Shown here in pieces: positions 51,501 through 55,237 of a stretch of 64,000 nt of DNA; the first letter of the stretch is position 1, and the number at the start of each line of letters is the position of its first letter. Made by a program: the position numbers and the translations under genes. The stretch spans positions 102,734 through 166,733 of the forward strand of contig CAZWEM010000002.1 of the NCBI GenBank assembly GCA_964632315.1, given 5' to 3'. The notes beneath the pieces were generated by a model. That model worked only from the letters and a program-made list of their open reading frames with translations. It was not told the origin of the DNA and made no database searches. Source of the stretch: an uncultured archaeon. Lineage in GTDB: Archaea > Asgardarchaeota > Lokiarchaeia > Sigyniarchaeales > SOKP01.

Positions 51501-51585
51501 TCTTTAGACAATAGAGAAAAATATATTAAGTATCAGATCTACTTCACTTTTAATTAGTAAAATTATAACAATAATAGGATTTCTA

Positions 51586-51696
51586 ATGAAGAAGTTCCAG
51601 ATAGATACTCGATATTTAAAAAAATCCTTTCTTAAACTTCCTCTATCAATATTATTGTTATTAGGTTCATTAAATCTTTTCTTATTGTTATTATAA
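51586..51696 (+). CDS. Putative leucine-rich leader peptide of the leu operon (36 aa, 14 Leu); not in ORF track
   Basis: MKKFQIDTRYLKKSFLKLPLSILLLLGSLNLFLLLL*; two TTATTGTTATTA Leu4 runs; double TAA; 129 nt upstream of leuA. Confidence 0.75.
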   Translation: MKKFQIDTRYLKKSFLKLPLSILLLLGSLNLFLLLL

Positions 51697-51759
51697 TAAA
51701 CCCTCTTCCCCTTCAATAAGATTCAAGGCACCATCTTTTCTATGGGAAGAGAAGAGATT
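51673..51759 (+). promoter_or_regulatory. Putative attenuator-like RNA switch in the leu leader
   Basis: Three pyrimidine segments (51673-83, 51703-10, 51733-41) are complementary to one purine tract (51744-59). Confidence 0.55.
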
Positions 51760-51825
51760 AAAGATTGAGAAATTTAATAAGGTGAGTATGGAACGGAAAA
51801 AAATAATGAAATATATGTCTCAGAA

Positions 51826-53442
51826 ATGATGGAAAGAATTCGTACTTCTTTAAATCTTCCCGAAAAAGCATACTTTTTTGACACGACTCTTCGGGACGGA
51901 GAACAAACTCCTAGTATTAGTTTTACTCTTGATGAAAAAATTGCAATTGCTAAAGCACTGGATGAGTTAGGAATAGACGTGATCGAAGCGGGATTCCCAA
52001 TCGTATCCGAGGGAGATTTTGAATCCTGTAAAAGGATTGCGAAATTGGGGTTAAGTGCTGAAATAATTGGATTAGCACGTATTAGGAAGGATGATATTGA
52101 TAAAGTGATAGACGCAGATATGGATAGTATTCACGTTTTTATTGCTACATCTGACCTTCACTTGAAAGAAAAACTCCAAATGACCCGAGAAGAAGTTACC
52201 AGCGAAGTAGCAGAGCTAGTGTCCTACGCGAAGGAACATTACTCAACTATAGTATTCTCTGCAGAAGATGCAACTCGCTCAGATTTAGATTATCTTCTCG
52301 AGGTAAATAAGATAGCAGTAGAAAGTGGTGCCACCCGAATTAACATTCCAGACACTGTAGGAACAATTACTCCAAGGGCATACGGATATATAATCAATAA
52401 ACACCATGAAATGTTACCCAATACCATAAGGATCGCAGCACATTGTCATAATGATTTTGGATTAGCTGTTGCTAATACCATTGCAGCTTTTGAGAATGGC
52501 GCTTCTGAAGCACAAACTACGATATTAGGCTTAGGAGAAAGGGCTGGAAATGCCGCATTTGAAGAAACAGCTATGTCTTTATATGCTTTATATCAAATTC
52601 CAATGAATATTAATGTTAAAAAGATTTTTCCAACTGCTAAATTGGTTGAAAGCTTTTGTGGAGGTAAGATCAGAATAGGTCGTCTTAAACCCTTAGTTGG
52701 ACAAAATGCTTTTGCTCATGAATCTGGTATTCATGCTCATGCTATGATTAAAAATGCTAGAGCTTATGAACCAATCACGCCTGAGTTAATAGGGATTAAA
52801 CGTTCTGATGATGTAGAGGAAATCATAAAGCAATCAATTGTACTTGGGAAAGGAACGGGAGGACACGCTCTAAAAGCTAAATTAGATGATTTAGGAATAA
52901 AAGCTACTAAAGACCAATTCGCAGATATTCGAGCACATATTAAAAGATTTGGAGATAAGGGGCACGAAGTTACAGAAGAGGATTTTCACGCAATTGTGAA
53001 AGATGTAATGGGAGAAATTCCTAAAGAGGAACGTTATGTAATCTTGGATGAACTTACAGTATTAACAGGATCTGTAACTCCTACTTCTACAGTCCGTTTG
53101 AAAATCAGAAATGGAGGTATGATAGAAAAAGTTGCCTCAGCGGTCGGAGTAGGTCCAGTTGATGCTTCAGTTAAAGCAATAGTTAAGTGTTTTAAACCAA
53201 TGAACAATATAAAACTGTTAGATTTCCAACTTGATGCTATAACGGGAGGGACTGAGGCTTTGGGACATGTAACAGTGGAAATAATGGATATGCAAACTAA
53301 TTTAATTGTAAAAACTAGTGCAACTCATGAAGACATTGTAATGAGTTCAGTTTTAGCATTAATAAAAGGATTAAATTTAATTGTTAAAAAGTTAAATAGA
53401 GAGAGAAAACTAAGTATAGAAAAAAATGAAAGTAGTGAATAA
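51826..53442 (+). CDS. leuA: 2-isopropylmalate synthase (LeuA/CimA family)
   Basis: DTTLRDGEQ, EAGFP, AEDATR, HCHNDFG, GERAGN, AHESGIH; C-terminal regulatory domain GPVDA; adjacent to leuCD. Confidence 0.88.
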   Translation: MMERIRTSLNLPEKAYFFDTTLRDGEQTPSISFTLDEKIAIAKALDELGIDVIEAGFPIVSEGDFESCKRIAKLGLSAEIIGLARIRKDDIDKVIDADMDSIHVFIATSDLHLKEKLQMTREEVTSEVAELVSYAKEHYSTIVFSAEDATRSDLDYLLEVNKIAVESGATRINIPDTVGTITPRAYGYIINKHHEMLPNTIRIAAHCHNDFGLAVANTIAAFENGASEAQTTILGLGERAGNAAFEETAMSLYALYQIPMNINVKKIFPTAKLVESFCGGKIRIGRLKPLVGQNAFAHESGIHAHAMIKNARAYEPITPELIGIKRSDDVEEIIKQSIVLGKGTGGHALKAKLDDLGIKATKDQFADIRAHIKRFGDKGHEVTEEDFHAIVKDVMGEIPKEERYVILDELTVLTGSVTPTSTVRLKIRNGGMIEKVASAVGVGPVDASVKAIVKCFKPMNNIKLLDFQLDAITGGTEALGHVTVEIMDMQTNLIVKTSATHEDIVMSSVLALIKGLNLIVKKLNRERKLSIEKNESSE

Positions 53443-53445
53443 AAA

Positions 53446-54714
53446 ATGGGATTGACAATTACAGAAAAAATATTTCGAGAGCACTCCAAAGACGCCACTC
53501 TAAATGCAGGCGATTTCGTACTTGTTCGAGTTGACAAATGTTTGGCTAATGATATTACCGCTCCTATAGCGATAGATGTCTTCAATGAGATTGTTAGTGG
53601 TACAAGTAACGAAGTTTTTAATCCAAACAAAATAATTCTAATACCGGATCATTTCACTCCAAATAAAGACATTGCTTCAGCAAAGCAATGCCAAATACTT
53701 CGAAATTTTGCCCTTAAGTACAAAATAAAAAGCTATTTCGAAGTAGGGAGGGGGGGTATCGAGCATTGCCTCATTCCTGAACTAGGTTTAGTCCTTCCAG
53801 GTGATATTTTCATTGGGGCAGATTCTCATACTTGTACTTATGGAGCATTAGGTGCTTTTGCAACAGGTGTTGGGTCGACAGATTTGGGGGTAGCTCTTGC
53901 ATCAGGAAAATGCTGGTTTAAGATTCCAGAGTCTTTAAAGTTAATTTATTCTGGAAAATTAAATAAGTGGGTTTCTGGTAAAGATCTAATATTATACACC
54001 ATTGGTCAGATTGGAGTTGACGGAGCTACTTATAAAGCTATGGAATTTACTGGAAATGTTATTACGAGTTTACCAATGGCAGATCGCTTAACAATGTGTA
54101 ATATGGCCATAGAGGCAGGTGGTAAATCGGGAATTATACCTCCTGACAATATTACCAAGGAATTCCTTGAAAAAAGAGGGTTTTCATCAAATAAAATGTT
54201 TCTGAGTGATTTAGACGCGGATTACATAGAATCAATTGAATTTGAATGTGATAATCTTGAACCCCAAGTTGCATTACCTCATTTACCAGAAAATACAAAA
54301 CCTATTTCAGAAGTTAGTAACGAAAGAATAGAATTGAATCAAGTAGTTATAGGATCATGTACAAATGGAAGAATAGAGGATCTAAGAATAGCAGCCAAAA
54401 TCTTAAAGAATCATAGAATAAAGACAAATTTAAGGTGTATAATAATCCCGGGTACTCAAAATATTTATTTAAAAGCTTTAAAAGAAGGATTAATTGAAAT
54501 CTTTATTAGTGCGGGGGCAATTTTATCCACTCCCACTTGTGGACCCTGCTTAGGAGGGCATATGGGTATCCTAGCTGATGGAGAAGTAGCGTTATCAACA
54601 ACAAATCGTAACTTTAAAGGCAGAATGGGTCATATAAAAAGTGAAGTCTATTTATCAAGTCCTGCAGTTGCTGCTGCTTCTGCTATAGAAGGATATATTA
54701 CATCTCCAGAATAA
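53446..54714 (+). CDS. leuC: 3-isopropylmalate dehydratase large subunit
   Basis: DHF, GADSHTCTYGA, CNMAIEAG, GSCTNGR, CGPCLG, NRNFKGRMG. Confidence 0.93.
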   Translation: MGLTITEKIFREHSKDATLNAGDFVLVRVDKCLANDITAPIAIDVFNEIVSGTSNEVFNPNKIILIPDHFTPNKDIASAKQCQILRNFALKYKIKSYFEVGRGGIEHCLIPELGLVLPGDIFIGADSHTCTYGALGAFATGVGSTDLGVALASGKCWFKIPESLKLIYSGKLNKWVSGKDLILYTIGQIGVDGATYKAMEFTGNVITSLPMADRLTMCNMAIEAGGKSGIIPPDNITKEFLEKRGFSSNKMFLSDLDADYIESIEFECDNLEPQVALPHLPENTKPISEVSNERIELNQVVIGSCTNGRIEDLRIAAKILKNHRIKTNLRCIIIPGTQNIYLKALKEGLIEIFISAGAILSTPTCGPCLGGHMGILADGEVALSTTNRNFKGRMGHIKSEVYLSSPAVAAASAIEGYITSPE

Positions 54715-54736: not shown

Positions 54737-55237
54737 ATGAAAGGAAAAGTGATTATGTATGACATTAAAAATATTAATACTGATGTAATAATTCCAGCGC
54801 GTTACTTAGTGTCCTCAGCACCAGATCTCTTAGCTCAACATTGTATGGAAGATTTAGATCCTAATTTTATGCTTAAGGTAAAAGAATTTAATTATTCGAT
54901 TTTAGTGACAAATTCTAATTTTGGATGTGGATCGAGTAGAGAACAAGCACCAATCTCTTTAAAAACTGCGGGAATAAAGTGTGTTATAGCCCCATCGTTT
55001 GCAAGAATATTTTTTAGGAATGCTATAAATATAGGGTTACCGATTTTGGAAATAGAAAAAATAAATTTATTAAAATCCGGAGACGATTTGAAGATTGATT
55101 TAACAAGTGGTTTAATTGAGAATCTAACAACTAATATGAAGATTAGAGTTAAAAAAATGCCTAAATTTATTCAAAACATAATAAATTCAAATGGGCTTAT
55201 TAACTATTCTAGAAAATTCCTAATTCCAAAAAACTAA
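54737..55237 (+). CDS. leuD: 3-isopropylmalate dehydratase small subunit
   Basis: NINTDVIIP, NFGCGSSREQA, SFARIFFRNAINIGLP. Confidence 0.93.
   Translation: MKGKVIMYDIKNINTDVIIPARYLVSSAPDLLAQHCMEDLDPNFMLKVKEFNYSILVTNSNFGCGSSREQAPISLKTAGIKCVIAPSFARIFFRNAINIGLPILEIEKINLLKSGDDLKIDLTSGLIENLTTNMKIRVKKMPKFIQNIINSNGLINYSRKFLIPKN

Follow-up and report, generated by a model that had tools for sequence, protein, structure and literature searches.

A leucine-run leader upstream of leuACD as a probable ribosome-read amino-acid gauge in Lokiarchaeia

Ribosome-read amino-acid sensing is textbook bacterial control, represented by the enterobacterial leader-peptide transcription attenuators leuL, ilvL, trpL and hisL and by pheM before pheST. 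Could an archaeon gauge its leucine supply in the same manner? The question is raised by a 64,000-nt stretch of DNA (the window) from an uncultured member of the Lokiarchaeia, in which a short ORF on the forward strand stands ahead of leuACD. This leader ORF (51586-51696) comprises 36 codons (coding span 51586-51693, followed by TAA TAA with the second stop at 51697-99), and 14 of its 36 residues are leucine, 10 of them among the last 15 codons, including identical Leu4 runs at 51652 and 51682. These features, together with a purine tract at 51744-59 and its complements at 51673-83, 51703-10 and 51733-41, had been pointed out in the initial annotation and are all confirmed. Among the 6,032 short ORFs scanned in 2,268 upstream regions of this genome, 10 leucines in the last 15 codons was the top count, and just two ORFs genome-wide, this leader included, held at least nine. 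The annotation had also considered that the peptide might be a conserved small membrane protein found away from leu genes; no second copy of a leuA-type leader was found in this genome, and the peptide gave no Pfam match.

The genes downstream, all on the same strand, are leuA, encoding 2-isopropylmalate synthase (51826-53442; NF002085, 577.7 against a cutoff of 517), leuC (53446-54714; TIGR02083 above cutoff) and a leuD-family small subunit gene (54737-55237; TIGR02087 above cutoff, TIGR02084 below). A leuB-like gene lies apart from them (G000:C5:63978-65045), with no Leu leader seen. The leader's own promoter is predicted at 51513-51529, with a BRE at 51513-51521 and a TATA box at 51522-51529 whose offset from a conserved downstream block is as in relatives. 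The TATA-like segment at 51548 that had been proposed earlier aligns with DNA some 20 nt downstream of the relatives' TATA box, close to where transcription is expected to start, and 51522-51529 is more likely to be the TATA box. Promoter motifs line up upstream of the leuA, leuS and ileS types of leader discussed below.

The start of leuA itself is unusual. Its Shine-Dalgarno (SD) sequence lies at 51780-51785 (AGGT, conserved 72-93 nt past the leader stop), and the ATG at 51788 behind it, 94 nt from the leader stop, has the usual spacing, yet it is out of frame with leuA here. In relatives LeuA starts about 12 codons farther upstream than in this genome. From the ancestral start runs a 13-codon ORF (51788-51829), whose TGA overlaps the ATGs at 51826 and 51829 (ATGA/TGATG overlap). 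The letters are identical in a second assembly (JGI contig L182), which may share the same reads, and the 538-residue LeuA product matches its family model from position 5 onward. The out-of-frame ancestral start is a peculiarity of this genome, and a scan of metagenomes for the pattern gave no match. Translation of leuA may begin at 51826/51829 through reinitiation or at an in-frame ACG at 51793; termination-reinitiation at such overlapping stop/start sites has been demonstrated in Haloferax (PMC6728339).

We searched for leuA in 400 Asgard genomes and examined the upstream DNA of 97 loci; the named relatives belong to the Promethearchaeota (Lokiarchaeia). In the family of this genome (f1), an ORF whose last 15 codons include 7-12 leucines is found at 58 of 59 loci, and the 59th has a weaker Leu-run ORF at an equal distance from leuA. 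These leaders are mostly 31-41 codons long, with the stop mostly 85-105 nt ahead of the leuA start. The sister family (f2) carries a Leu-run ORF at four of five testable loci, two further loci being gapped there. Relatives thus carry the Leu-rich upstream ORF, whose absence from them the initial annotation had named as evidence against a leader. Directly before leuA no such ORF was found at 31 distant loci (11 in families f3-f7 and 20 leuA-like loci in other Asgard classes), some of which may be operon-internal. At one locus (L073, genome G048) a tandem 27-nt repeat beside an assembly gap occupies the position where a leader is expected. The LeuA tree, built without bacterial rows, follows taxonomy and places every carrier within one clade (support 100/99), so the leader sits on a leuA gene that looks vertically inherited. 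The closest LeuC relatives returned from outside the Lokiarchaeia are bacterial (L229-L292, 58-65% identity), unlike the taxonomy-following LeuA, and a separate origin of leuCD is possible. In a limited test, no terminal Leu-run leader was found within 2.6 kb upstream at the bacterial loci with the closest LeuC.

What is conserved in these leaders is the leucine-rich tail. The N-terminal halves vary freely, and the tails retain leucine through all six codons with TTA favoured (419 of 607 leader Leu codons, 69%, vs 46% genome-wide). Taking one locus from each of 14 genera, the last 13 codons hold 7-11 leucines against about 2.2 in base shuffles (p <= 0.001 each). Positions -1 to -4, counted back from the stop, are leucine in 55-61 of 62 leaders, and the Leu run abuts the stop in nearly every one. 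Counting synonymous against non-synonymous changes on right-aligned codons gave 241 vs 245, a comparison that register shifts confound and that was set aside.

Similar leaders were found at other genes, with other residues. The initial annotation had suggested looking for cognate leaders before trp, his, ilv and thr operons; such leaders were found before leuS, ileS, the trp genes and hisIE. A Leu-run ORF precedes archaeal-type leuS at 44 of 44 family loci, genomes without leuA included, and an Ile-run ORF lies ahead of ileS at 30 of 30; Trp-rich ORFs stand ahead of trp genes at 10 loci in family f1, and in this genome a His-rich 48-codon ORF with a hairpin lies directly before hisIE-hisG-hisD (L313:359-580; G000:C55). 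The Trp leaders (L194-L196, L203, L204, L207, L209-L211) are 22-26 codons long, with four Trp within the last nine residues. Codon and gene therefore match in five independent settings, namely Leu/leuA (63 loci), Leu/leuS, Ile/ileS, Trp/trp and His/hisIE-G-D. A cognate leader was not evident before valS (two genes), cysS, proS, thrS, hisS, glyS, bacterial-type leuS, two ilvD-family genes and the leuB-like gene. Because the enriched residue tracks the downstream gene, we hold it highly probable that these ORFs serve ribosome-read amino-acid sensing, rather than encoding a membrane peptide or arising by chance.

The leuS leaders offer some further observations. A second copy of their RNA scaffold (G000:C62:18310-18900, forward strand) carries an Ile/Val-run ORF in place of the Leu run, and from this comparison of sequences the codons appear to be swappable on a fixed RNA; the gene that follows has a 4Fe-4S ferredoxin-type N-terminus. 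At three loci (L139:534-800 of G134, and also L138 and L140) what follows the Leu leader of leuS type is the gene of a divergent LeuRS that shares about 40% identity with the usual one; in L139 a remnant stub of the old leuS start lies between leader and newer gene, which suggests that leuS was replaced beneath a retained leader. The genome under study also encodes a bacterial-type LeuRS, whose gene has no Leu leader, and two ValRS enzymes that differ in type (L150 = G000:C41; L085, L088).

How such a leader might act depends on its RNA structure. The leuA leader DNA is too diverged for alignment-column counts and partner-swap tests were used instead; folding is at equilibrium and 37 C, and related loci are not independent. 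Two helices emerged. The first, P0, joins the 5' UTR (51565-51584, with an SD-like AGGA; upstream strand 51565-51576) to leader codons at about -20 to -9, here the first Leu run (downstream strand 51650-51661; MFE -19.4, z -2.9). Cognate pairing reached -9.4 against -6.2 kcal/mol when swapped, in favour of P0 in 52 of 62 leaders, and the control was null. By the folding model P0 shuts the leader's own entry region and would limit reloading. The second is a post-stop hairpin, or rod (51703-51751), with an outer stem (51703-10 with 51744-51), an inner stem (51718-22 with 51733-37) and a pyrimidine-rich 5' arm. In leuA leaders generally the rod is about 55 nt long and starts at a distance of 0-9 nt from the stop codon's first base; it folds with a median z of -3.6 across 62 loci (49 below -2), and its own arms pair at -18.6 vs -11.4 for other-genus arms, better in 61 of 62. 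The rod of this genome ranks with the weaker examples (z -1.3 to -1.5), and relatives provide its support. The original proposal that leuACD is preceded by a leader ORF which gauges leucine and has conserved RNA structure is supported by homologous ORFs and covarying helices in those relatives.

Its particular long stem, between 51673-83 in the leader and the purine tract, fared less well: it folds here (-20.5 kcal/mol) and shows no covariation (cognate -7.5 vs other-genus -7.3; 31 of 62). Several other pairings were likewise dropped for lack of covariation, including those that would join the Leu codons to the 3' arm or the inner rod, the 5' UTR to post-stop segments, and the 5' UTR to the second Leu run, the last of which folds in this genome alone (-13.1). 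No mutually exclusive helices of the 1:2, 2:3 and 3:4 kind covary in the leuA leaders, no hairpin-plus-U-tail terminator was found there, in agreement with the initial annotation, and four loci gave no Rfam match at E <= 1, Leu_leader included. In leuS leaders, two competing helices, A:A' and B:B', both covary, with two-sided changes in 15 of 25 pairs, a count reached by 0 of 500 shuffles and lying well above slid controls; RNAalifold returned only five pairs since the two helices compete, and the named structures were counted instead. In ileS leaders the folding model gives an invariant 5' UTR motif two alternative partners, one within the ORF and the other the hairpin loop. A U7-8 tract is kept in most ileS leaders (L152-L174) about 115-125 nt past the leader stop, and U4 in 27 of 30; the former, which leuA leaders lack, is a candidate archaeal terminator.

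Where would a ribosome sit on this RNA? One study gives an archaeal footprint of 27 nt (PMC7261190), and our folding mask accordingly covered 27 nt, the last of them 9 nt beyond the A site. With the ribosome stalled anywhere from -14 to -3, roughly 9 bp of the outer stem remain; this drops to 3.9 at -1 and to 1.5 at the stop, where the inner hairpin persists (8.7 to 7.3 bp) and modelled exposure of the pyrimidine arm rises only from 0.27 to 0.38. A stalled ribosome had been thought to cover the C/U tract at 51701-14; on the last Leu codon it reaches 51702 and at the stop 51705, leaving the tract mostly uncovered. The other suggested output, a switch at the leuA ribosome-binding site (RBS), finds no support either, in that no leader segment covaries with the RBS (own better than swapped in only 20-28 of 62) and accessibility stays at 0.52-0.66 across ribosome positions. 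Sequence, conservation and covariation together establish a predicted promoter, a 5' UTR, a 31-41 codon ORF ending in leucines, P0, the rod and, about 25 nt downstream of it, a leuA RBS that is not sequestered.

From these parts we propose that leuACD is controlled co-transcriptionally by the leader, which would act as a leucine gauge read by the ribosome, with the rod as the ON state and termination as the OFF state, a scheme for which we put the balance at even. The first ribosome would load before P0 forms, and P0 would then restrict later loading. With Leu-tRNA scarce, the ribosome would stall at Leu codons -13 to -3, the rod would form fully, its pyrimidine-rich strands would be hidden and RNA polymerase would continue into leuA. 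With leucine ample, the ribosome would reach the stop, block the outer stem and be released, leaving an uncoupled polymerase with C/U-rich nascent RNA, to be ended by FttA/aCPSF1 or by U-rich intrinsic termination. FttA/aCPSF1, the CPSF73 orthologue, is encoded in this genome (TIGR03675, 882 > 580). As there is neither a terminator hairpin nor an RBS switch, this factor or archaeal U-rich termination is the likeliest effector, and premature termination or cleavage by FttA/aCPSF1 is our best guess for the output, held with middling confidence. For FttA, binding to U-rich nascent RNA and a possible competition with the ribosome have been described (PMC11616081), and a Lokiarchaeota orthologue is functional in M. 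maripaludis (PMC13675443). Some points count against the model. FttA reads nascent RNA at positions -30 to -36 and so could meet the 5' arm of the rod before the rod closes; the modelled exposure change is small, U4 tracts occur in under half of the leuA leaders (27 of 62 at 0-30 nt, 19 of 62 at 30-60 nt), and a 3:4-type hairpin is lacking.

The same gauge could run with the opposite sign, the rod being an OFF element (pause, termination or cleavage) that forms after ribosome release and is prevented by a stall at the final one or two Leu codons. The abutment of Leu run and stop fits this arrangement, as does the halving of the outer stem by a ribosome at -1; in the ileS model, too, the hairpin is lost when a ribosome occupies the Ile run, since the 5' UTR is then available for pairing with the loop. 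However, the majority of the conserved Leu codons (-3 to -13) are too far away to affect the stem, so that stalls there would have the wrong sign, and no U tail follows the rod; we consider this reading unlikely, while giving it real weight. We are a little more doubtful of a post-transcriptional output, in which ribosome position would alter leuA initiation or mRNA decay as in the mycobacterial polycysteine leaders (10.1101/834739). Beyond that precedent, it would account for the fixed stop-to-start spacing, and the masked fold of this genome does join the 5' arm with the RBS region; it is opposed by the flat RBS accessibility and lack of covariation reported above and by the leuS and ileS hairpins, which lie 50-110 nt away from start codons.

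Two further readings deny that the ribosome senses anything. An untranslated RNA element, binding protein or tRNA, with U/A repeats that mimic Leu codons, would explain the dominance of TTA, and mutations in the Streptomyces leuA leader did not act like attenuation (PMC1262725), but all six Leu codons are used, the frames have a start and a stop at conserved length, runs of ATT/ATC, TGG or CAT appear before other genes instead, and Rfam gave no match, all of which makes it very improbable. Slightly less credible still is a small membrane or trans-acting peptide followed by an ordinary 3' end or processing signal: 19-residue hydropathy does reach at least 1.6 in 42 of 62 peptides, but leucine accounts for 93% of hydrophobic residues in the tails vs 27% in the membrane helices of this genome, a charged residue occurs in 30 of 62 tails, the residue that is enriched changes with the downstream gene (Ile, Trp, His), and neither a Pfam match nor a second copy exists, so that on the sequences this reading appears largely refuted.

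Set beside known systems, the proposed gauge resembles bacterial leader-peptide attenuation in its working. With the enterobacterial attenuators it shares a short cognate-codon ORF before a biosynthetic operon or synthetase, a hairpin a few nt past the stop and a leader entry site paired by downstream leader sequence; it differs from them in the archaeal host with its BRE/TATA promoter and in lacking a 3:4 terminator with U tail, a leader:post-stop (1:2) pairing in leuA and an Rfam Leu_leader match. In terms of the classical attenuator, the cognate-codon ORF and a hairpin reachable from the stop are present and the intrinsic terminator is absent. E. coli trpL has a 2:3 antiterminator, and its geometry is that of the leuA rod, whole during most Leu stalls and blocked at the stop. 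The closest logic is that of the uORF-controlled Rho-dependent attenuators tnaC, mgtL, corL and speFL (PMC12360218), which likewise have no intrinsic terminator and let uORF translation decide factor access to pyrimidine-rich RNA, whereas our proposal has the FttA/aCPSF1 nuclease as the Rho analogue and cognate aminoacyl-tRNA as the signal. The actinobacterial LEU element before leuA and the Streptomyces leuS leaders also contain Leu-run ORFs, and LEU is without terminator (PMC1262725), as is the Asgard leader; in LEU, however, the Leu run pairs with the leuA SD, while in the Asgard leader it pairs with its own 5' UTR and SD pairing does not covary. The mycobacterial polycysteine "ribulon" of leaderless sORFs (10.1101/834739) similarly tunes several loci through cognate codons, and the leuS leader here also looks leaderless, but the ribulon acts through RBS sequestration, which was not found here, and multiple amino acids are covered here.

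For archaea, translated uORFs have been reported by Ribo-seq in Haloferax and Methanosarcina (PMC7261190, PMC10117724, PMC11456600), and the available portions of these papers give no cognate-codon sensing or attenuation mechanism. The literature searched, whose scope excluded most subscription papers, held no published case of archaeal ribosome-read amino-acid sensing. Very probably, then, an Asgard clade gauges amino-acid supply with the ribosome, a form of control that we found described only in bacteria. Going further, we suggest, with more reserve than for the leucine gauge, that a Lokiarchaeia clade may have evolved an attenuation network spanning several amino acids, where the place of the ribosome on cognate leaders gates FttA/aCPSF1 cleavage-linked termination, without intrinsic terminator or Rho, on archaeal promoters and a vertically inherited leuA. 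If true, this would imply tight transcription-translation coupling in Asgard archaea, and the leaders would be short natural reporters for the possible competition between ribosome and FttA on nascent RNA, as hypothesised from the FttA structure (PMC11616081). The leaders could also help to connect unknown genes with a particular amino acid, for instance the ferredoxin-type gene behind the Ile/Val leader.
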